This document shows positions 6,585 through 16,760 of a DNA stretch of 64,000 nt, one piece after another. Source of the stretch: a bacterium (GTDB taxonomy: Bacteria; Krumholzibacteriota; Krumholzibacteriia; JACNKJ01); the NCBI GenBank assembly GCA_024231955.1, contig JAAEPZ010000538.1:766551-830550 (forward strand), in the 5' to 3' direction. Positions within the stretch are counted from its first letter, which is position 1. Every line of letters begins with the position of its first letter. A model generated the notes under the pieces. It was not told the DNA's origin. It did no database searches and saw nothing but the letters and a program-made list of their open reading frames with translations. The position numbers were made by a program, and so were the translations under genes.

Positions 6585-9440
6585 GTGTCCATGTCCGCCA
6601 GTAGCCCTTTTCCCGTTCGTCTGACGCAGATCGCCGAGGGCGCCACCGCGCGTGTTTTCGAATCCCGTGACCATCTGGGGCTGCCGGTCGCACTCAAGGT
6701 CGCCAGGGCCTCTCGCGATAACCGGACGCTGAAGCGCGAGGCGGAGATGGCGGCCCTTCTGCGGCATCCCGCCCTGTTGCGCATCCTGACGCAGGGGCAG
6801 GGTGATGATGGCCTGGCCTGGCTGATCATGCCCCTCCTCCCAGGCCGCACACTTGCGGACTGGACGGGTGCCGACAGCGAGCTGCTCGACCATCTAGCGC
6901 CTGTGGCCGATGCCCTCGACCTGCTGCATCATCTGGGTTGGGGACATGCCGACCTCAAACCCGAAAATCTGCTGCTGGCCACCGATACCTCCCGTTACCC
7001 ACTGTTGCTCGGCGATCTCGGCCTGGTGTCACGGTTGAACGCACGTGCCGGAGGTGGGAGCCCTGCCTATCTGTCCCCGCGTCGTCTCGCGGATGCACCG
7101 CTGACCTGGCGGGACGATCTCCATAGTTTCGCCGTTCTCACGTTCGAAAAACTGGCGGGGGTTCTGCCCTACAACCACGATACGGGTGATGCCCTGCTGG
7201 CCGATATCCGTCAGGGGGGACTCCGGGACCTCTCCCGTTTCCGTCCTGAACTGTCGACCGAACTCGGGCGCTTCTTCACTGCCACCCTTCTGGGCGATCA
7301 TGGCGCGACCAGCGTGATGACCTGGCTGGATGAGCTGCGCTCCCACTTCGGTCAGACGCCCGCGCCCCGCTGTCTTTTCGGTCGCGAGATACCGGAGGAG
7401 ATCCTCCATGGTTCCGATCTCCAGAGGGCGTTGACCTCCGCCCTCTATTCAGTCTCACAGACATCCGTTCAGCCGGGTCACGAGGAGTTGATCGTGATCG
7501 AGGAGTTGGCCGGCGCCGCGCCGACCCATCTGCGGATCTGTATCGAGTTCCTGCTGTCCAATCAGTGGTTGCGGGATGATGTGGGGTGGGGGCGTTTCCG
7601 TGAACCACCAGCAGTCTGGCGGTCGGAGTTGGAGCTGTTGCTGAGAGGGGGGGGCGACTGCGCCGTCACCGACCTCTCGGATCGACTGGAGGAGCTGGGT
7701 CTGAAGCCGACTGACTGTGATGAGGTATGGACTCAGGTCTGGAATGACAATTCCGAGCGGCTTGACCGACGTCTGCAGCTTGTCGGCGTAGCGCTTTCCG
7801 CAGAGCGTTTCGACTGGTTGCTCGCCTTGCCGGGCGATCATTTCTTCGTTATTGCCGATCGTGGTCCCCGGGAGACGCAGTTGGAGGTGATTAGCCAGGC
7901 GGCGATGGGGGATATCCCGTCCGAGGTGAATGCCCGCATCCGAATCTGGGAGGTCATTCGGCAGATCAGGGAGGATAATCTGGTTGCCGCCCGGACCGAG
8001 TTCTGGGCGATAGAGGAGCATCTGGATCTGGAGAGCAGCGGTGAGCTGAGCCGACTTCTGACCTATCAATTACTGGATGCAGGTCGTGTTGAGGAGGGGT
8101 TCGCGTTTCTCAGTCGCTGGCGGGAGGGGAGGAGCGCTCAACTCGCCGGGACTGAACTGGAGATACGGTTGGCCGCGAGAGAGATTACGGCTTATGCGCA
8201 ATACGGGGATGTTGAGACTGCAAGAGCGCGCGCGAAAACCTATGGGGACGCTTATGCAGGCCGCAGAGGTGAGTGGTTCTTATATATGGCTCTAGCCAAT
8301 ATTGCTACAGAGCAACGTGATATTGCTGAGTCATTAGCGCATACAAAACATGCTCTTGCTGGAGTTCAACGGGATAAGGGTGATCAGCGTATCATGATCC
8401 ATTTAATGCTCTTTCTTGCCTCGGGGTACACCTTGTGGGGGCGACAAGAGTATATGGACAGTGTTCCTGAGCTGATTGACAACGCGTTCAGTTATGCGAA
8501 TGACCTGGGTGATTCATGGTTAATATTGGAATGCCTGTCAACCAAGGGCCTTTGGGAAATGAATCATGGTAGCTTCCGAAGCTCTGAAGAATATTTTCTA
8601 CAGACGGTGAAGTTGGCGAAAGATAGCGGGCAACTCAATCGATCACCATACTATCTTTCCAATTTGGCTTTATCTGTTTTTTACCAAGGTGATTACTCCC
8701 GTATTATCTCTCTCAGTGACCAAATTCGTGATAGTCTGATTGAAGAGCAAACCCTTAAGAGCGTGCTGTCTTCCAAGGAAGTGTTATGCTTGTTCTCAAT
8801 TGCATTTGGAGATCTCCTTGATGCGGATGTAATGATTGAAGAGGCAATGCTTGCTGCCACCTCATCCAGTTCTGAACAAGCTCAAGCGAGCTTTCTATTG
8901 TTGCGTGCTATGATTGCCAGTTATCGGCTTCAGAATACAGATGCACAAAGAGATATTCTGGCATCCAAAAAGATCCATGAGGAGGCTGGGGCCAGCAGTG
9001 ATGTAATGTATTGCAGGATGATGAATTATGAATTGCAACCTGTTGATTGCCAGGATGTTGATAAGATTATCGAAGTAATTGAATTCTTCACGGCTATTGA
9101 ACGTCGTCTTCACCTTCCCCACGCCTGGCGTCTGTTGGCGCGGCATCTCAGATCGACCGGTGATCTTGAGGGTGCCGCTCAAGCTCTGACCAATGGATTT
9201 GATGTTGCCGGGGAGATGGGTAATCCTGAGGAGATCTGGCCGCTGCATGTCGAATCCTCACACCTCGCCCTGGCCGGCGACAGCAGGGGGGCGGCGCGGA
9301 CGGAACTGACTGCGGCGGCTCAGATCCTGCGCGATCTGTCCCTGCACTTCCCCGAGGGTGCAGCCCGTGATCAGTTCCTGTCTCGACGGGACAGGGCGGA
9401 TGTTCTCCAGAGACTGCAGGCACTTGGGAGGGTTGAATGA
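6585..9440 (+). CDS. Hanks-type Ser/Thr protein kinase with a long C-terminal TPR/helical-repeat region.
   Basis: N-terminal kinase motifs VALKVAR (VAIK-like), HADLKPENLLL (catalytic loop, non-RD variant), DLGL (DFG-like) and SPAYLSPRR (APE-like). About 650 aa of helical repeats follow. Confidence 0.8.
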   Translation: MSMSASSPFPVRLTQIAEGATARVFESRDHLGLPVALKVARASRDNRTLKREAEMAALLRHPALLRILTQGQGDDGLAWLIMPLLPGRTLADWTGADSELLDHLAPVADALDLLHHLGWGHADLKPENLLLATDTSRYPLLLGDLGLVSRLNARAGGGSPAYLSPRRLADAPLTWRDDLHSFAVLTFEKLAGVLPYNHDTGDALLADIRQGGLRDLSRFRPELSTELGRFFTATLLGDHGATSVMTWLDELRSHFGQTPAPRCLFGREIPEEILHGSDLQRALTSALYSVSQTSVQPGHEELIVIEELAGAAPTHLRICIEFLLSNQWLRDDVGWGRFREPPAVWRSELELLLRGGGDCAVTDLSDRLEELGLKPTDCDEVWTQVWNDNSERLDRRLQLVGVALSAERFDWLLALPGDHFFVIADRGPRETQLEVISQAAMGDIPSEVNARIRIWEVIRQIREDNLVAARTEFWAIEEHLDLESSGELSRLLTYQLLDAGRVEEGFAFLSRWREGRSAQLAGTELEIRLAAREITAYAQYGDVETARARAKTYGDAYAGRRGEWFLYMALANIATEQRDIAESLAHTKHALAGVQRDKGDQRIMIHLMLFLASGYTLWGRQEYMDSVPELIDNAFSYANDLGDSWLILECLSTKGLWEMNHGSFRSSEEYFLQTVKLAKDSGQLNRSPYYLSNLALSVFYQGDYSRIISLSDQIRDSLIEEQTLKSVLSSKEVLCLFSIAFGDLLDADVMIEEAMLAATSSSSEQAQASFLLLRAMIASYRLQNTDAQRDILASKKIHEEAGASSDVMYCRMMNYELQPVDCQDVDKIIEVIEFFTAIERRLHLPHAWRLLARHLRSTGDLEGAAQALTNGFDVAGEMGNPEEIWPLHVESSHLALAGDSRGAARTELTAAAQILRDLSLHFPEGAARDQFLSRRDRADVLQRLQALGRVE

Positions 9441-11221: not shown

Positions 11222-11605
11222 TCATGATTGTCCGCGACGAATGCGCTCCTTCTCGGCAAGGAACTCCGCCGCTTCCGGTTTGAGCAGAGTGACAAGCCCA
11301 TAGATGCCGACAATTGTGCCGAAGGGGATGCTGAGGAGGTTGAGAATACTAAGCACGACACCTGCGGAGCGCGCCCAGGGGCGCAGGCGGAGCAGACCAA
11401 AGCCGATGATGAGCCCCGGCAGCGACAGGAGCGTGAGAAAACTGCTGATGATCGTGCCGACCGAAGTGGTGACTATCAGCGCTTCCTGATCCCCGGACAA
11501 TAAACCGCCGCCCGTCATGGTGACAAAGATCACCAGGCTGAACAGCAGGCCGAATACGCTGATGACGAGGTAGAGAGCTCCAAGTACTGTCAGGTGTCTT
11601 TCCAT
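11222..11605 (-). CDS. Hypothetical small integral membrane protein, about 4 TM helices.
   Basis: 127 aa, almost entirely hydrophobic helices (VLGALYLVISVFGLLFSLVIFV..., GVVLSILNLLSIPFGTIVGIYGLVTLL). No recognisable motif. Confidence 0.45.
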   Translation of the reverse strand: MERHLTVLGALYLVISVFGLLFSLVIFVTMTGGGLLSGDQEALIVTTSVGTIISSFLTLLSLPGLIIGFGLLRLRPWARSAGVVLSILNLLSIPFGTIVGIYGLVTLLKPEAAEFLAEKERIRRGQS

Positions 11606-11821: not shown

Positions 11822-12805
11822 ATGATCCCCATCGACAAACTTCAGGCGACCGGCGCTTTTCTGTTGGCTCAAGAGCGGGTTCGTCTTCTGCTCCACAAAC
11901 ATCCCGATGGCGATACCCTTGGTTCCAGCCTGGCTCTGGCGCGCTTCCTCAAGCAGAAGGGGATGGATATTGGGGTCTTTGGTCCGTTTCCGCGAGCGGC
12001 AAAGTTCGATTTTTTGCCGGGCTTCGAGGAGGTCGAGTCCGGTGTAGACGAGATCCGCAATCCCGAATATGCCGATACGCTCTACGTGGTTGTCGATAGT
12101 ACGGGGGTGGATCGGACGGGCTTCGAGGAGGGGGACTTCAAACGGCTGTTGCGCCTCGATCATCATATCGGGGGCAGTCGGTATAGCGAGTACGATCTGG
12201 TGGATACCTCCGCCGGAGCGGCGGCTCTGATTATCAGCGATCTCCTCCATGCCCTGGACAAGGATGGCATAGACGCCGGCACCGCCACCTGCCTCTACAC
12301 CGGTCTGATGACCGATACCGGCGGTTTCCGCTACACCAATACCAACAGCCATGTATTCCACTCCGTGGCTCGTCTGGTCGACCAGGGGGCGAGCCCGGCT
12401 GAGGTCGCCACGATGGTCTATGACCGTCGGAATCCCTCCTATCTGCTGCTGCTCAAGCGGGCGCTGGAATCAATCGAGTTCCATGCCGAAGGCCGCCTGG
12501 CCATGTTGACGCTCACCGCCGCGGGTCTTCCCGAGGAGGCGTTGCTCTATTTTGGGGAGGATGATTTCATCAACCTGCCGCGCGGCCTTGCCCAGGTGGA
12601 GGTTGTCGTCCAGATGAAGCTGGTCCCCGGTGAAAACTGGAAAGTCGGCTTCCGGGCCAAAGGCAAGGTCAATGTGCAGGAGATCGCCACCCATTTCGGT
12701 GGTGGAGGACACTTCTCGGCAGCAGGTTGCGAGATCGATGGCGAGTTGGAGGAGGTTCGACACCGTGTGCTGACGCGGGTCCTTGAGGCTATCTCAGCAT
12801 CTTGA
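11822..12805 (+). CDS. nrnA: DHH-family phosphoesterase, NrnA-like (oligoribonuclease / pAp phosphatase).
   Basis: DHH motifs HKHPDGDTLGS and LDHHIGG, plus a DHHA1-like C-terminus with GGGH (FGGGGHFSAAG). Confidence 0.75.
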   Translation: MIPIDKLQATGAFLLAQERVRLLLHKHPDGDTLGSSLALARFLKQKGMDIGVFGPFPRAAKFDFLPGFEEVESGVDEIRNPEYADTLYVVVDSTGVDRTGFEEGDFKRLLRLDHHIGGSRYSEYDLVDTSAGAAALIISDLLHALDKDGIDAGTATCLYTGLMTDTGGFRYTNTNSHVFHSVARLVDQGASPAEVATMVYDRRNPSYLLLLKRALESIEFHAEGRLAMLTLTAAGLPEEALLYFGEDDFINLPRGLAQVEVVVQMKLVPGENWKVGFRAKGKVNVQEIATHFGGGGHFSAAGCEIDGELEEVRHRVLTRVLEAISAS

Positions 12806-12941: not shown

Positions 12942-14708
12942 GTGTCTAAGGATTCGGGAAACGACAAGCCGACATTGCCCAAACGATCACCGGCTCTCGA
13001 GAAGCTGCTGGGGCGTTCCGTCGATTCCTCGCCAAAAACAGCCACATCCGGCGGCGCCGCCGCCACACCAGCCCCAATTACCGAGACCAATGCCGCTCCC
13101 AAACCCGGACAATCCGCTTCCGGCAGCAGTGTCTGGGAGCTTGAGACTCTCCGCAATCGCCTGAAGGAGACTCAGGAGGAGATCGCTCGGCTCCGCATTA
13201 TTGATGACTCTCATAGCCGTTTGCTCACCCTTCTCGAGGCGAACGCCGATTTTCTGGTCTCGGCGGATCCCGCCAGGCTTCCGGATCGGATTCTCCAGAT
13301 CGGGCTGGACCTGGTCGGCGCGGAGCGCGCCGCGTTCTTCCGCATCAGCAAGGAGGGGGCGCTGAATCTGGGACAGGTGCGACCTGAAGGTGCAACTTTC
13401 AGCTCGATCAGCCACTCGGTCGTACGGGACGCGCTTCTGGGGAAACGGACGATCGTTCATCAGGGACAGTCCGCCCAGGTGGGTGCCGAGCGGCAGAGCA
13501 TTATTGACCTGGATCTGGAAACAGTAGTCGCTACGCCACTTATGACTGCCGAACGTCAACTGGGTATCCTTTATCTGGACGGTTCGCGCGTTGGTGCTTT
13601 TACCGCCGCCGATGTTCCTGTGCTTGAGATCTTCACCCGTCTCGCAGCTGCGGCAATGGTTCGCCTCGAGGAGTTGCAGGAGGTGCGTGAGGAGAAGAGT
13701 GAGCTCAAACAGGAGAACATGGAGCTGAAAAGCGCCCTGAGTGACCGCACCCGTTTCGGTAATATTCTGGCGGCGAGTGCCGGCATGAAGAACGTGATCG
13801 AGCAGCTCAGACGGATGTGCCGCTATCGCTCCACCGTGCGGATATTCGGGGAGACCGGTACGGGTAAGGAGTTGATTGCCAGGGCTCTGCACAACGAAAG
13901 CGCCTGGGCGCGGCGGCCATTCGTTACCATCAACTGTGGTGCAATCCCTGAAGCGCTGCTTGAGTCCGAGCTGTTTGGACACGAGAAGGGCGCCTTTACC
14001 GGTGCCGATACGGCCAAGGCCGGGCTCTTCGAGCAGGCCGACGGCGGAAGCCTGTTTCTGGATGAGATCGGTGATATGCCCGCCATGTTGCAGGTCAAAC
14101 TGCTTCGGGTCTTGGAGAATGGCGAGGTGCGCCGCGTCGGGGGGAATCGGGTGAGTCGTGTCGATGTGAGGGTTATCGCTGCATCGCACCGCAACCTGGA
14201 GGAGAGGGTTCGGGATGGGGAGTTCCGGGAGGATCTGTTCTATCGACTCAATGTCCTCACCGTCAGTCTGCCGCCGTTGCGGGAGCGTCCCGAGGATGTT
14301 GAGCTTCTTGCCGAGTATTTTCTGAAGAGATACGGGGAGAAGATGGGTCAGGACTGCCGCGGCTTCACACCGGCGGCGATCGGACGTTTGCAATCGGAGA
14401 CCTGGCCCGGCAACGTGAGGCAGCTCGAGAAGTGCGTTGAGAGGAGCCTGGCTCACTGGGAGGGGCGACGGATCATGGAGGAGCACCAACTGATGCTCGA
14501 CGCAGGCCCCCTCACCGATCGACCGGATCTGCAGGCGACCCAGTCAAGTCCGGATGAGAGTCTGAAGCAGTTCGTGACCAGGATGGAGAAAGACAAGATC
14601 GGTCAGGCGCTGAAACAGGCGAAGGGCCGTAAAACCACTGCCGCAGCCAGACTTGGCATCTCCCGGCAGTACCTACATCGCAAGATCAAGGATCTGGAGC
14701 TCGAATAG
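12942..14708 (+). CDS. Sigma-54-dependent transcriptional activator (disordered N-term, GAF sensor, AAA+ sigma-54 interaction domain, Fis-type HTH).
   Basis: Walker A GETGTGKELIARALH, GAFTGA motif ESELFGHEKGAFTGA, Walker B GGSLFLDEIGDM, arginine finger region, C-terminal HTH AAARLGISRQYLHRKIK. GAF-like block upstream. Confidence 0.85.
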   Translation: MSKDSGNDKPTLPKRSPALEKLLGRSVDSSPKTATSGGAAATPAPITETNAAPKPGQSASGSSVWELETLRNRLKETQEEIARLRIIDDSHSRLLTLLEANADFLVSADPARLPDRILQIGLDLVGAERAAFFRISKEGALNLGQVRPEGATFSSISHSVVRDALLGKRTIVHQGQSAQVGAERQSIIDLDLETVVATPLMTAERQLGILYLDGSRVGAFTAADVPVLEIFTRLAAAAMVRLEELQEVREEKSELKQENMELKSALSDRTRFGNILAASAGMKNVIEQLRRMCRYRSTVRIFGETGTGKELIARALHNESAWARRPFVTINCGAIPEALLESELFGHEKGAFTGADTAKAGLFEQADGGSLFLDEIGDMPAMLQVKLLRVLENGEVRRVGGNRVSRVDVRVIAASHRNLEERVRDGEFREDLFYRLNVLTVSLPPLRERPEDVELLAEYFLKRYGEKMGQDCRGFTPAAIGRLQSETWPGNVRQLEKCVERSLAHWEGRRIMEEHQLMLDAGPLTDRPDLQATQSSPDESLKQFVTRMEKDKIGQALKQAKGRKTTAAARLGISRQYLHRKIKDLELE

Positions 14709-14716
14709 AGTGAAAT

Positions 14717-14734
14717 CGTAAACATGTGTTTACG
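14717..14734. promoter_or_regulatory. Perfect 18-bp palindrome CGTAAACATGTGTTTACG, a candidate upstream activator sequence for the adjacent sigma-54 activator.
   Basis: Read directly from the sequence. It lies about 200 bp upstream of the sigma-54 promoter at 14931. A half-site-like TAAACATG recurs at about 14882. Confidence 0.35.
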
Positions 14735-14930
14735 AAGTGTCGCCGATTTGATGCCTCCCTAACTCTCTGTAATATATGTCGATATGGTTGACGTTGTTTT
14801 TGTGTCGCCTGTAGTTTCCATACTCAGGTTGGAAGTAACTCGCTCCCGACAATTCCTGAAAATCATAACTCCCAGTAAATAAACATGATAGCCCCTGAAG
14901 GCGCTATGAGGAAGTCCGCTCCGTGATAAC

Positions 14931-14945
14931 GGCATCCGGGTTGCT
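14931..14945 (+). promoter_or_regulatory. Sigma-54 (-24/-12) promoter.
   Basis: GGCATccgggTTGCT gives GG-N10-GC with TTGC at -12, matching TGGCAC-N5-TTGCW. It sits about 50 nt upstream of the first small-peptide ATG. Confidence 0.5.
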
Positions 14946-14996
14946 ATAAGGCCAGTGTCAGCTCACTACAAAATAACGGAAATCGGGAGGTTTCAA

Positions 14997-15074
14997 ATGT
15001 TGATCTTCAGTCTGTTCGCCAGCGCTTCCGTCTTCACAGCTTTCCTGACCAAGACCTGGTGGGACATTTCCTAA
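14997..15074 (+). CDS. 25-aa hydrophobic peptide, copy 1 of a tandem paralogous array.
   Basis: MLIFSLFASASVFTAFLTKTWWDIS. GGGAGG lies 7 nt upstream. The copies differ mainly by synonymous or conservative changes. Confidence 0.5.
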   Translation: MLIFSLFASASVFTAFLTKTWWDIS

Positions 15075-15128
15075 GCACAGTTAACGTGGGCTGCGGCCCG
15101 GTACCCGAGTAAAACAGGAGAAGTTAAA

Positions 15129-15206
15129 ATGTTGATTTTCAGTCTGTTCGCAACCGCTTCGATCTTCACAGCTTTCTTGACCAAGACCTGGTGGAACATC
15201 GGTTAG
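15129..15206 (+). CDS. 25-aa hydrophobic peptide, copy 2.
   Basis: MLIFSLFATASIFTAFLTKTWWNIG. AGGAGAAG RBS. Followed by a GCGGGCC-tgag-GGCCCGC hairpin. Confidence 0.5.
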   Translation: MLIFSLFATASIFTAFLTKTWWNIG

Positions 15207-15266
15207 ATGACTGTATGGCGGGCCTGAGGGCCCGCAATACTTGACCACATCATTAGGAGGTTTCTC

Positions 15267-15344
15267 ATGTTGATTTTCAGTCTGTTCGCAACCGCTTCGA
15301 TCTTCACAGCTTTCCTGACCAAAACCTGGTGGGATCACAGCTAA
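15267..15344 (+). CDS. 25-aa hydrophobic peptide, copy 3.
   Basis: MLIFSLFATASIFTAFLTKTWWDHS. AGGAGG RBS. Followed by a CGCGGC-tgaa-GCCGCG hairpin. Confidence 0.5.
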   Translation: MLIFSLFATASIFTAFLTKTWWDHS

Positions 15345-15399
15345 GGAAGTTTACGCGGCTGAAGCCGCGGTCCCGGTAGGGATTACCCGCAAGTGTGCG

Positions 15400-15435
15400 A
15401 TGTTGATTTCGGTTCGCCATACCAGCTTTGCATGA
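15400..15435 (+). pseudogene. Degenerate fourth copy of the small-peptide gene.
   Basis: ATGTTGATTT...TTCGC...AGCTTTG retains blocks of the unit but carries deletions and an early stop (MLISVRHTSFA). Spacing from copy 3 (55 nt) matches the array period. No RBS. Confidence 0.35.
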
Positions 15436-15630
15436 ACTGTCTGAAAAATAACCCAGTGGTATGGTGCCCAGATAGATGGAATTCGCTTCATCAAATCCAT
15501 TTGATTCGAGGAGGCGAAGACGGGTTGGGAAGGAGCCCGACCTCGTCCGGCGAAAGCCGGGAATCTGAAATGTAGAGGCTCGTGATGATGGAGAACCGGC
15601 CTTTCCTTGTTGCAGGGAAAGGTCGGGCTC

Positions 15631-15686
15631 TTGTGTTGCTGTATTTGTGACTTGAAACTTGTGTTGCTGTATTTGTGACTTGAAAC
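15631..15686. repeat. Perfect tandem direct repeat, 2 x 28 bp (TTGTGTTGCTGTATTTGTGACTTGAAAC).
   Basis: Read directly from the sequence. It lies immediately upstream of a small ORF. There are no spacers, so it is not a CRISPR array. Confidence 0.8.
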
Positions 15687-15701
15687 AATGGAGGGGGCGG
15701 T

Positions 15702-15809
15702 ATGGATGCAATACGGAGAATCAAGGGCTCTGGTTTGCTGATGTTCATGCTCAGCCTCCTTGATTTGCTCACCACGGCGCCGGGCAAGACTCGGTGGTGT
15801 GATGAGTGA
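15702..15809 (+). CDS. 35-aa small hydrophobic peptide (MDAIRRIKGSGLLMFMLSLLDLLTTAPGKTRWCDE).
   Basis: GGAGGGGG SD 7 nt upstream. Its C-terminal K-T-R-W-C-D echoes the K-T-W-W-D of the 25-aa peptides. GC hairpins follow. Confidence 0.35.
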   Translation: MDAIRRIKGSGLLMFMLSLLDLLTTAPGKTRWCDE

Positions 15810-16035
15810 TACCGAGTAACCGGGTCTCCCATCCCCTGGTTGCGAGGGGAGGGGCTGCACCTTTTGGTGTGGCCCCTCTTTAATTTCGGCCAATGTTTGT
15901 GAAAAAAATAACGATACTGGTGAATATCTCTTTTCATAACCTAAAGTGAATATATCGCTTGCAAAATAATGCTAAGAGTGATTATTCTCCCCTCCGCCCC
16001 GAGATTGTGGGCATTCTCCCAGGTGGATTTGTCTG

Positions 16036-16344
16036 ATGAGCTTTCTGTTTAGTATCGCCAAAAGGACCAGGCGTCAGATCAGGAAACAGTCCGGACGAGG
16101 TACTGGCGTACTGTCGCTGAGTCATCTCGGTGTCACCTTTGCTGCTTCAATTGCTCTCTACACTCTGGCTGGACTGTGGCTCGACAAGAAACTGGGTGTA
16201 TTGCCGCTGTTTACTTTGTTGGGTGCGGCGGTCGGTACGGTCGGTGGCTTTCTCTGGCTTTATCGCGAAGTTCTCAGAGCGGAAGAGCGGAATATCGAGG
16301 GAAGTGACGACAACGAGGTGGGTGAGGAGCAGGTGGAGAGTTGA
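16036..16344 (+). CDS. AtpZ/Atp1-like small membrane protein, first gene of the atp operon.
   Basis: 102 aa with an arginine-rich N-terminus followed by two TM helices, immediately upstream of atpI and atpB. Confidence 0.55.
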   Translation: MSFLFSIAKRTRRQIRKQSGRGTGVLSLSHLGVTFAASIALYTLAGLWLDKKLGVLPLFTLLGAAVGTVGGFLWLYREVLRAEERNIEGSDDNEVGEEQVES

Positions 16345-16760
16345 GATCACTTCAGGTTCGTTTCCTTAATGCAATATTGGCACTTGCTTTGCTGTCAGCG
16401 CTAACGGTTGCATTTGTTCAGTCATTTCTGCCGAGTGTGAAGCTGTGGGGCAGTTGGGCAGGCATCGGTGTTGCTGTAGCAAGTGTGGCAGTCAGTTTCT
16501 ATCAACTGAAACGCTCGCTATCCGCCGCTCACCTGGTGTTCTTCAGAGCCTTTGTTTTCAGCATGGCGTTGAGAGTGTTGATGATCGCTACGGCCAGTTT
16601 GCTGGTTTGGCAGACGACGAATTGGGATCTCAGACAGTACTTGATCCTTTTGGGTTTGACTTATCCGCTCTTCCTCATGATTGAGGCGTACTTTCTGTGG
16701 CGGATGCTTGGCGTGTCGGCGGGTGAAAATCCCACCCGGTGCGCGGAAAATAAGGAGTGA
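16341..16760 (+). CDS. atpI: ATP synthase protein I (AtpI)-like membrane protein.
   Basis: 139 aa, four hydrophobic helices. Its position between the atpZ-like gene and atpB, with 4-nt overlaps, indicates translational coupling. Confidence 0.55.
   Translation: MRSLQVRFLNAILALALLSALTVAFVQSFLPSVKLWGSWAGIGVAVASVAVSFYQLKRSLSAAHLVFFRAFVFSMALRVLMIATASLLVWQTTNWDLRQYLILLGLTYPLFLMIEAYFLWRMLGVSAGENPTRCAENKE

Follow-up and report, generated by a model that had tools for sequence, protein, structure and literature searches.

Described systems that resemble the KTWW locus

In the psm-alpha system, which encodes the phenol-soluble modulins (PSMs) alpha 1-4, three or four tandem paralogous genes of ~21-25 codons, each with its own ribosome-binding site, are carried on one short transcript under the control of a dedicated activator (AgrA), and their products are leaderless. 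A predicted unit of the same layout was found in a stretch of 64,000 nucleotides from a bacterium of the Krumholzibacteriota (contig JAAEPZ010000538.1 of assembly GCA_024231955.1, positions 766,551 to 830,550), which is referred to here as the window and to which all coordinates refer unless a related locus is named. It consists of tandem open reading frames (ORFs) for putative micro-proteins with the C-terminal motif Lys-Thr-Trp-Trp, named KTWW after this motif, and is located between the gene of a presumed sigma-54 activator and the ATP synthase (atp) operon. PSMs are amphipathic and cytolytic and are exported by the Pmt ABC exporter, whereas the KTWW peptides are uniformly hydrophobic, are encoded without an exporter gene nearby and under sigma-54 and a GAF-domain activator, and share no sequence similarity with PSMs.

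A second resemblance is to the small modulators of membrane pumps and complexes such as KdpF (Kdp ATPase), sarcolipin and phospholamban (SERCA), AcrZ, MgtS and CydX. These proteins of fewer than 50 aa span the membrane with essentially a single helix that bears a short polar or aromatic tail, are encoded in the operon of a large membrane complex or next to it, and act by helix packing. They are single-copy proteins, however, and usually co-transcribed with their partner, whereas the KTWW genes occur as one to three paralogues on what appears to be a separate, activator-dependent transcript. No homology of the KTWW peptides to these modulators was found in Pfam, NCBIfam or the PDB. To our knowledge, no regulator of the KdpF or sarcolipin kind has been described for the membrane sector of a bacterial F-type ATP synthase.

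The type I toxins of enterobacteria (Ibs/Sib, Ldr/Rdl, Zor/Orz) are likewise hydrophobic peptides of 18-35 aa from tandem loci with copy-number turnover, and LdrD ends in ..SWWRNRK. In contrast to the KTWW unit, which is polycistronic with open Shine-Dalgarno sequences and without an evident antisense element, their genes have promoters of their own, antisense or overlapping antitoxin RNAs and masked translation. The leader peptide TrpL is likewise encoded by a very short ORF in which two neighbouring Trp codons lie close to the 3' end and behind which hairpins follow. The KTWW unit differs in that it lacks downstream trp genes and a conserved terminator/antiterminator geometry, and in its multiple copies, conserved hydrophobic body and activator-dependent promoter. 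In the luxO-qrr loci of Vibrio, finally, the gene of an enhancer-binding protein lies beside a short sigma-54 transcript with a conserved short element, a terminator and a variable copy number. Qrr RNAs are non-coding and Hfq-dependent, whereas the KTWW transcript is predicted to carry selected ORFs, and no complementarity to a target was found in the window.

By this comparison the KTWW unit would stand closest to psm-alpha in architecture, to the pump modulators in likely action, to the type I toxins in peptide style and to luxO-qrr in genomic logic. It differs from each of the compared families in characteristic features and has no sequence relative among described families. What sets it apart is the combination of a dedicated sigma-54 activator, an invariant, codon-fixed and sometimes doubled motif and a fixed place beside the atp operon.

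The KTWW peptide family

The KTWW ORFs of the window are located in a region of 1.3 kb without any long ORF, which extends from the stop codon of the gene predicted to encode the 588-aa activator (12942-14708) to the start of the atp operon (16036). Four units were detected there:

14997-15074, plus strand: putative KTWW micro-protein gene, copy 1 (MLIFSLFASASVFTAFLTKTWWDIS), with the Shine-Dalgarno sequence GGGAGG upstream
15129-15206, plus strand: putative KTWW micro-protein gene, copy 2 (MLIFSLFATASIFTAFLTKTWWNIG), with the Shine-Dalgarno sequence AGGAGA upstream
15267-15344, plus strand: putative KTWW micro-protein gene, copy 3 (MLIFSLFATASIFTAFLTKTWWDHS), with the Shine-Dalgarno sequence AGGAGG upstream
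15400-15460, plus strand: decayed fourth copy with frame-breaking deletions and without a Shine-Dalgarno sequence

A first-pass annotation of the window had proposed three near-identical 78-nt ORFs in tandem, each with a Shine-Dalgarno sequence of its own, and both statements were confirmed. The three intact ORFs comprise 25 codons each, are spaced by 132 and 138 nt and are preceded by GGAGG-type sites (GGAGG, AGGAG and GGAGG, respectively) 7-9 nt 5' of each ATG. The copies share 84-90% identity over a 79-nt repeat, and the spacers separating them do not align to each other. Comparison of copy 1 with the other two shows four synonymous and two conservative substitutions (S/T and V/I) up to codon 22; the final three codons, which follow the Trp-Trp codons, vary freely. 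The unit at 15400, previously described as a deletion-riddled remnant, indeed proved to be one: it retains ATGTTGATTT at 15400-15409 (10/10 identical) and TCGGTTCGCCA at 15409-15419 (10/11 identical), followed by a trace of CAGCTTT, and its frame is broken by deletions of ~5 and ~15 nt, with a TGA at ~15433. KTWW was not encountered elsewhere in the six-frame translations of the 64-kb window and of the related loci L001-L005.

The annotation had also placed a GC-rich stem-loop behind each ORF. Short GC hairpins of 4-7 bp do occur 3' of each KTWW ORF of the window, but the folding of the inter-ORF spacers shows no gain or a modest one over shuffled sequences (z +0.7, -2.0 and -1.6), and the hairpins are not universal, being absent between the ORFs of two related loci. 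A gene on the opposite strand of the array (85-aa ORF, 15081-15338, minus strand) was considered as well and rejected, as minus-strand frames vary in length and position at every locus.

For comparison, the DNA around orthologues of the activator was analysed, which comprised ~14 distinct loci with ~30 KTWW ORFs. Approximately 20 full-length orthologues with 51-64% identity were found, and those carrying a taxon label belong to the Krumholzibacteriota or Krumholzibacteria. At all orthologous loci a gap of ~1 kb, in which gene callers predict little, holds one to three KTWW ORFs. These ORFs start with ATG behind a GGAGG-type site and are predicted to encode peptides of 21-28 aa, in which an uncharged, hydrophobic segment of 14-20 residues precedes (T)KTWW; the latter is followed by the stop codon, by one to three more residues or by a second (T)KTWW. 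Examples from related loci are MLITMLTALTGAYTAWLTKTWWTKTWW, MFIVFMAMISASGIYLTKTWW, MFLTLTVPMLIALTAVIYGKTKTWWGTP, MLFVYLTMISTTVLTATKTWWKTWW and MLLSLLPFLFGLVLWTKTWWSQP; the motif is often doubled within the ORF. In an alignment of 22 peptides Met1 and K-T-W-W were the only invariant positions, and the identity to the window peptide went down to 27-50%. The earlier annotation needs correction in that the conserved core is the C-terminal KTWW and not the whole peptide.

Start codon, ribosome-binding site, frame and stop codon are kept in the ~30 ORFs from ~14 loci despite their diverged bodies, and the only frame-broken copy seen is the fourth unit of the window. A count over 13 pairs of orthologues or paralogues gave 43.5 synonymous differences on 214 sites and 38.5 non-synonymous ones on 716 sites, corresponding to proportions of 0.20 (pS) and 0.054 (pN) and a pN/pS of 0.26; the pairs are not independent, although the direction is consistent. 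Since ATG, Shine-Dalgarno sequence, frame and stop codon are kept while the hydrophobic part diverges, and since pN/pS is ~0.26, the KTWW ORFs show the pattern of translated peptides that are selected as protein. Purifying selection on translated peptides had been suggested from the window copies alone, and this comparison across loci bears it out. The opposite pattern, conservation at the nucleotide level only with frame-breaking indels in homologous loci, was looked for and not found.

Neither the peptides nor their profile matched any entry of Pfam, NCBIfam, PADLOC or the PDB, even at permissive E-values (up to 10 or 1 in the Pfam, NCBIfam and PADLOC searches), which agrees with the former statement that they match no known family. 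According to a search of Rfam at gathering thresholds, no RNA family is present anywhere in the window. Two protein profile searches, covering 5.8 billion proteins and 1.84 billion cluster representatives, together retrieved nine members of the family, which were mostly extended upstream by the gene callers and are named 'hypothetical protein' only. A literature search for the KTWW string or for sigma-54-controlled small membrane proteins yielded nothing relevant. Judged from these sequence comparisons, the KTWW peptides are a real and previously undescribed family of micro-proteins in Krumholzibacteria.

Several near-identical, precursor-like small genes in tandem and an invariant, sometimes duplicated Lys/Trp motif at the C-terminus would also be expected of ribosomally synthesised and post-translationally modified peptides, in which, for instance, Lys and Trp or the two Trp residues of KTWW might be cross-linked, as is found in peptides of the streptide or darobactin type. 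We regard such a role as extremely unlikely. No gene for a radical-SAM enzyme, a cyclodehydratase, a protease or a transporter was found within 5 kb of any locus, the N-terminal part is a plain uncharged hydrophobic helix without a recognisable leader, and no precursor family of NCBIfam or Pfam matches.

The conservation of the motif extends to its codons. At the nucleotide level it reads ACC-AAG-ACC-TGG-TGG and is near-invariant (15048-15062, 15180-15194 and 15318-15332 in the window), even where the activators share only 51% identity. Nine loci provided 29 motifs, in all of which the Thr codon preceding Trp-Trp is ACC, and the two most divergent loci agree with them; ACC also encodes the first Thr in 24 of 27 motifs, and AAG the Lys in 27 of 29. 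In the genes of the window, by comparison, ACC accounts for 49% of the Thr codons and AAG for 69% of the Lys codons. Within the KTWW ORFs themselves, the Thr codons of the hydrophobic part are mixed and other synonymous sites differ by up to 50%. The 29 motif instances share descent, and no exact probability can be assigned to the bias. Nevertheless, it seems to point to an additional constraint at the RNA or codon level. Possible sources are selection for accuracy or speed of decoding at essential residues, an influence of codon context on the Trp-Trp pair or a role of the RNA.

The last of these sources could mean that the transcript serves, alone or in addition to its coding function, as a sigma-54-dependent regulatory RNA with one to six copies of a 12-15-nt element (ACCAAGACCUGGUGG) as seed or protein-binding site. 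The identity of this element at synonymous positions, its repetition within and between ORFs and the presence of a terminator soon after the array would be in accordance with such an RNA. However, start codon, Shine-Dalgarno sequence, frame, stop codon and hydrophobicity are kept outside the element as well, with the pN/pS given above, and the RNA between the ORFs is neither conserved nor strongly structured. Moreover, when the invariant 15-mer was used to look for complementary sites in the whole 64 kb, the atp leader included, only the motif itself came up, there is no Rfam match, and the codon choice at invariant residues could also reflect selection for translational accuracy. A regulatory RNA therefore seems very unlikely.

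Promoter, activator and borders of the predicted transcript

The following features are located upstream of the KTWW array:

12942-14708, plus strand: enhancer-binding protein with GAF, AAA+ (sigma-54 interaction) and HTH_8 domains according to Pfam, the presumed activator
14737-14744 and 14802-14809, plus strand: candidate sites for binding of the activator (GTGTCGCC), located ~190 and ~125 nt 5' of the -24 element
14930-14945, plus strand: sigma-54 type -24/-12 promoter (CGGCATCCGGGTTGCT) with GG at 14931-14932 and GC at 14943-14944

The -24/-12 element of the window starts 67 nt before the first ATG, its GC being located 53 nt before it, and matches TGGCAC-N5-TTGCW in 9 of the 11 specified bases. 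Matches with up to two mismatches are not rare (21 observed in the window, 28 expected), so the element of the window taken alone is not significant. The assignment gains its significance from the conserved position across loci rather than from this match. In nine loci GGCAC-N5-(G)TTGCW was found with 9-11 of 11 bases at 67-75 nt 5' of the first ATG and followed by a conserved leader (AtnAGnAAGGGTGA), and in the two most divergent loci the promoters TGGCACAGGGGTTGCG and TGGCACATGGGTTGCG lie 64 and 76 nt from the first ATG. Altogether, 11 loci thus have a sigma-54 promoter with 9-11 of 11 matches at a distance of 64-76 nt, and a relaxed form of the pattern is nearly the sole match per locus of ~10 kb. 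The canonical GG-N10-GC promoter that had been postulated upstream of copy 1 is borne out by this conservation of position and sequence.

The promoter is kept in sequence and position in all promoter-ORF units examined but one. At locus L007 (6980-7830) the whole peptide unit is doubled. The first unit, which is without a canonical -12 element, contains one KTWW ORF and its own T-tailed terminator, and the second, 450 nt later, has a canonical sigma-54 promoter in front of two KTWW ORFs and ends with another terminator.

The protein encoded upstream had been identified as a GAF-AAA+-HTH enhancer-binding protein, and its Pfam matches (Sigma54_activat, 5e-71; AAA_lid_14; HTH_8; GAF_2/GAF_3/GAF) agree with this. 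The GAFTGA motif as well as the Walker A (GETGTGKE) and Walker B (DE) motifs are intact and invariant in 17 aligned orthologues. In NCBIfam it did not reach the cut-off of any equivalog or named activator, and it is 100% identical to a protein from a metagenome-assembled genome annotated as 'GAF domain-containing protein [bacterium]', although an exact look-up of the activator sequence had returned no record. Repeats or palindromes of GTCGCC/GGCGAC were detected 5' of the promoter in six of nine loci, e.g. GTCGCCGATCGGCGAC in L003, and are not evident in the other three; they are candidate binding sites of the activator. The adjacency of activator gene and promoter in every locus suggests that the two are coupled.

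Furthermore, a perfect 18-bp palindrome (CGTAAACATGTGTTTACG) is present at 14717-14734, 9 nt past the stop codon of the activator gene. It was not found in other loci and is more likely a candidate protein-binding site than an RNA hairpin, because its central loop would be too small.

The gene order at every orthologous locus is DHH/DHHA1 phosphoesterase, GAF activator, the gap of ~1 kb and the ATP synthase operon, the latter in the order AtpZ-like protein (PF09527), a protein of ~135 aa and the subunits a, c, b, delta and alpha. This block is kept down to 51% identity of the activator, and the KTWW unit is found immediately upstream of atp wherever downstream sequence is available. Genes farther upstream vary by locus, with a Ser/Thr kinase in some and CsgG/ArsP or an RND pump in others. 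The search for homologues, which had been proposed as a check of the association with a GAF enhancer-binding protein, placed the activator directly upstream of the KTWW unit at every locus reaching that far, including those found by way of the peptide or of the DNA motif.

Besides the two profile searches, a metagenome scan for two copies of AAGACCTGGTGG at a distance of 108-138 nt was independent of the activator. These peptide- or DNA-motif-first searches yielded only loci of the DHH/activator/KTWW/atp kind; 17 of the 22 stretches matching the double motif in the metagenomes were rejected as unrelated repeats or chance matches. A peptide-based scan of one genome per species returned 37 stretches, roughly as many as the patterns used would yield by chance, and none of them could be confirmed. 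Downstream of a more distant GAF activator (42% identity, locus L009) neither KTWW ORFs nor atp genes were found, and none were present behind the GAF matches in Chloroflexota and Magnetococcales.

The DHH/DHHA1 phosphoesterase, a stand-alone protein encoded at 11822-12805 (plus strand) in the window, precedes the GAF activator in every locus extending that far. It is NrnA-like but far below the NCBIfam cut-off; a role in the processing of a nucleotide that serves as GAF ligand is pure conjecture. A Ser/Thr protein kinase of 950-1000 aa with TPR-like repeats is encoded a few genes upstream in the window (6585-9440, plus strand), in L001 (408-3419), L003 (1-1281) and L042, but not at all loci. 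Between the kinase and DHH genes a minus-strand ORF of 117-127 aa without a family (11222-11605 in the window) was detected in the window, L001, L003 and L006.

The 3' end of the unit and its border to the atp operon are marked by these features:

15596-15626, plus strand: 14-bp hairpin (-27.5 kcal/mol, z -4.7) continuing into a U-rich tail, which likely acts as intrinsic terminator and thus marks the 3' end of the sigma-54 transcript
15702-15809, plus strand: second small ORF (35 aa in the window, ~42 aa at other loci), conserved in 10 of the 12 loci checked
15848-15879, plus strand: terminator hairpin after the second small ORF with a 14-bp stem and a T-rich tail, the 3' hairpin of 15810-15880
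15959-15988, plus strand: sigma-70-like promoter of the atp operon and downstream boundary (TTGCAA at 15959-15964, N18, TATTCT at 15983-15988)

The hairpin at 15596-15626 was the sole terminator-like site in a scan of 14650-16100. In L007 the peptide units are followed by similar CCGG..CCGG hairpins that have a clear T-run, and in L010 a T-tailed hairpin of comparable kind is found after the unit. A perfect tandem duplication of a 28-nt unit (CTTGTGTTGCTGTATTTGTGACTTGAAA) occupies 15630-15685, between this hairpin and the second small ORF, and was not seen elsewhere.

The second small ORF represents a family of ~35-43 aa with a basic N-terminus (often MRRRR from a TTG start after GGGAGG), a short hydrophobic stretch (PLIAVLRLLALL) and a C-terminal P-x-K-(A/T/V)-(R/L)-W. 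Members were located at ~7450-7579 in L001, ~7417-7545 in L003, 5920-6045 in L005, 5616-5744 in L006 and 7632-7757 in L008, as well as up to position 7256 in L010 and 7388 in L012; L007 is without this family. There is no match in Pfam or NCBIfam, and a profile comparison with hhalign gave no support for common ancestry with the KTWW peptides. The counterpart in L045 ends with PPKTWWN. This ORF possibly belongs to the KTWW system and may be the last gene of its transcript, because many loci are without a T-tailed terminator between it and the KTWW ORFs.

For the segment behind the second small ORF (15810-15880) a folding energy of -45.3 kcal/mol (z -5.3) was obtained, and most loci have a T-tailed hairpin 3' of this ORF. 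A T-tailed hairpin between the KTWW unit and the atp operon is present at every locus scanned. Furthermore, TTGATT-N17/18-TATTCT followed by G(A/T)CCC was detected ~50-60 nt before atpZ in six of eight loci (window, L001, L003, L006, L007 and L045), L005 and L008 having no sigma-70-like match before atpZ. Terminators between the two units and a sigma-70-like promoter of atp's own therefore indicate that the KTWW unit is a transcription unit separate from atp and not the promoter or leader of the latter. Sigma-54 control of the atp operon was accordingly rejected as an explanation, its own sigma-70-like promoter being located behind terminators in most loci.

This separation also bears on the idea that the KTWW peptides are cis-acting leader peptides, in which a ribosome paused at Trp-Trp in the manner of trpL, or arrested by its nascent chain, would act on downstream hairpins and thereby determine whether transcription continues into the second small ORF and atp. 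In favour of this idea, UGG-UGG is located near the end of every one of these tiny ORFs and is often doubled; in the window three codons separate it from the stop codon, which is the layout of trpL of Escherichia coli (..KGWWRTS*). Hairpins follow the ORFs, and the motif is conserved at the nucleotide and codon level. However, neither trp nor other amino-acid biosynthesis genes are located downstream, and atp has its own promoter beyond one or two terminators. The distance from stop codon to terminator ranges from ~70 to 250 nt, hence there is no conserved attenuator geometry, and the spacing from Trp-Trp to the stop codon is variable, too (0, 3 or 5 codons). Sensing of Trp would not need the conserved Thr-Lys-Thr and the uncharged hydrophobic N-terminal part, and a dedicated activator-dependent promoter for an attenuator alone is implausible. 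Leader peptides are thus quite improbable.

Within the atp operon, a hydrophobic protein of 139 aa is encoded at 16341-16760 (plus strand) between the AtpZ-like gene and subunit a, the usual position of AtpI. It has no Pfam or NCBIfam match and 39-46% identity in related loci. Its ORF contains a perfect sigma-54 consensus (TGGCACTTGCTTTGCT, 16378-16393, plus strand, coding for ..ILALALL..), which is probably due to chance, because it is absent from the same place in six other loci.

Membrane character, predicted action and meaning

The core before KTWW contains no charged residue and is composed of 22% Leu, 18% Ala, 12% Thr, 10% Met, 9% Ile and 8% Phe. On the Kyte-Doolittle scale the core has a mean hydropathy of 1.4-2.5 and a low helical hydrophobic moment (0.05-0.85); the Hessa insertion energy sums to ~0 kcal/mol, and the net charge is 0 to +2. 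By composition, the KTWW peptides fall among the proteins of less than 50 aa with a single membrane helix. A helix formed by a peptide of 21-28 residues would be just long enough for one crossing of the bilayer. Lys together with two Trp is a typical interfacial anchor, and the positive-inside rule would place the C-terminal Lys and Trp residues of the KTWW peptides at the cytoplasmic interface.

Peptides of this character might damage the membrane. They could be effectors of the type I toxin, PSM or bacteriocin kind, silenced by a tight off-state of the sigma-54 promoter instead of an antitoxin RNA, which on induction would either collapse the proton motive force, leading to dormancy or lysis, or be released against competitors. 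Their size and composition, a hydrophobic helix with an aromatic or basic C-terminus, are similar to those of Ibs, Ldr and TisB-type toxins, which are often encoded in tandem too, and several ORFs of ~22-25 aa with individual Shine-Dalgarno sequences under a dedicated activator recall the staphylococcal psm-alpha genes. The cores are also rich in Thr and Ser, as are pore-forming helices, and the copy number turns over, with one decayed copy in the window.

However, the KTWW ORFs are polycistronic with exposed, strong Shine-Dalgarno sequences, unlike the masked toxin mRNAs with one ORF per gene, and no consistent antisense feature was found across loci. A scan of both strands of 14650-16100 for sigma-70-like promoters found none, although the promoters of this phylum may escape such a scan. 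The peptides are not amphipathic and barely cationic, no gene for an exporter, an immunity protein or a processing enzyme was detected at any locus, and no toxin family of Pfam, NCBIfam or PADLOC matches. Furthermore, a synteny that is stable across deep divergence would be unusual for toxin or bacteriocin cassettes. A membrane-damaging effector consequently appears rather unlikely, and among the roles suggested in the first-pass annotation the leaderless bacteriocin-like one is the least supported.

We consider it on balance probable that the locus is an activator-gated operon of single-helix membrane micro-proteins that act by packing against a membrane complex or against each other, with the ATP synthase as a candidate partner. 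In this operon a ligand or another signal would act on the N-terminal GAF domain of the activator. The activator would then bind to upstream sites, for which the GTCGCC repeats are candidates, and open the sigma-54 polymerase complex at 14930-14945 by ATP hydrolysis; promoter and activator motifs are present, their coupling is suggested by adjacency, and the mechanism is the canonical one. The predicted transcript of ~0.25-0.7 kb would start ~55 nt before the first ATG and end at the hairpin with the U-tail. From its one to three ORFs (three in the window), each with a strong Shine-Dalgarno sequence, translation would be initiated independently, so that the gene number might set the dose. The resulting burst of helices of 21-28 aa, rich in Leu, Ala, Thr and Ser, would insert into the cytoplasmic membrane with Lys-Thr-Trp-Trp as anchor, as their composition suggests. 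Packing of these helices against themselves or against a larger membrane complex may finally alter the activity of the partner or the energetics of the membrane. The weakest step of this scheme is the ATP synthase as partner.

The ATP synthase is the first candidate because the KTWW unit is kept immediately upstream of atp throughout the lineage. Three points speak against the scheme or parts of it. First, the adjacency to atp could be mere inherited gene order, since the KTWW and atp units are transcriptionally separate. Second, the hydrophobic core of 14-20 residues is short and thus marginal for spontaneous insertion. Third, a pure membrane-peptide model leaves the ACC/AAG bias of the motif unexplained. 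A more specific proposal sees in the KTWW peptides micro-subunits or regulators that are made on induction and work on the membrane sector of the F-type ATP synthase or, in a wider sense, on the proton circuit. The inducing signal, a nucleotide or the energy state, would be received through the GAF domain and possibly tuned by the NrnA-like DHH protein, and ACC-AAG-ACC-UGG-UGG would serve as a second layer of control at the level of RNA or translation. We put this forward tentatively and regard it as improbable in this specific form.

Genes of 21-28 codons escape gene callers, and the KTWW peptides are thus a hidden and strongly conserved component of an uncultured phylum. The locus offers a clean case of a dedicated sigma-54 activator with micro-protein genes as its only evident target, and the synonymous-site invariance raises a question about coding sequences that are constrained in two ways. 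Should the proposed connection with the ATP synthase be wrong, the peptides would be one more lineage-specific family of small membrane proteins, useful for annotation and unsurprising. The compact invariant KTWW motif is, moreover, open to mutation, and the locus provides a specific hypothesis that ties micro-proteins to the ATP synthase or to membrane energetics. If this hypothesis holds true, the KTWW peptides would be a bacterial rotary-ATPase counterpart of the single-helix pump modulators of the sarcolipin or KdpF type.

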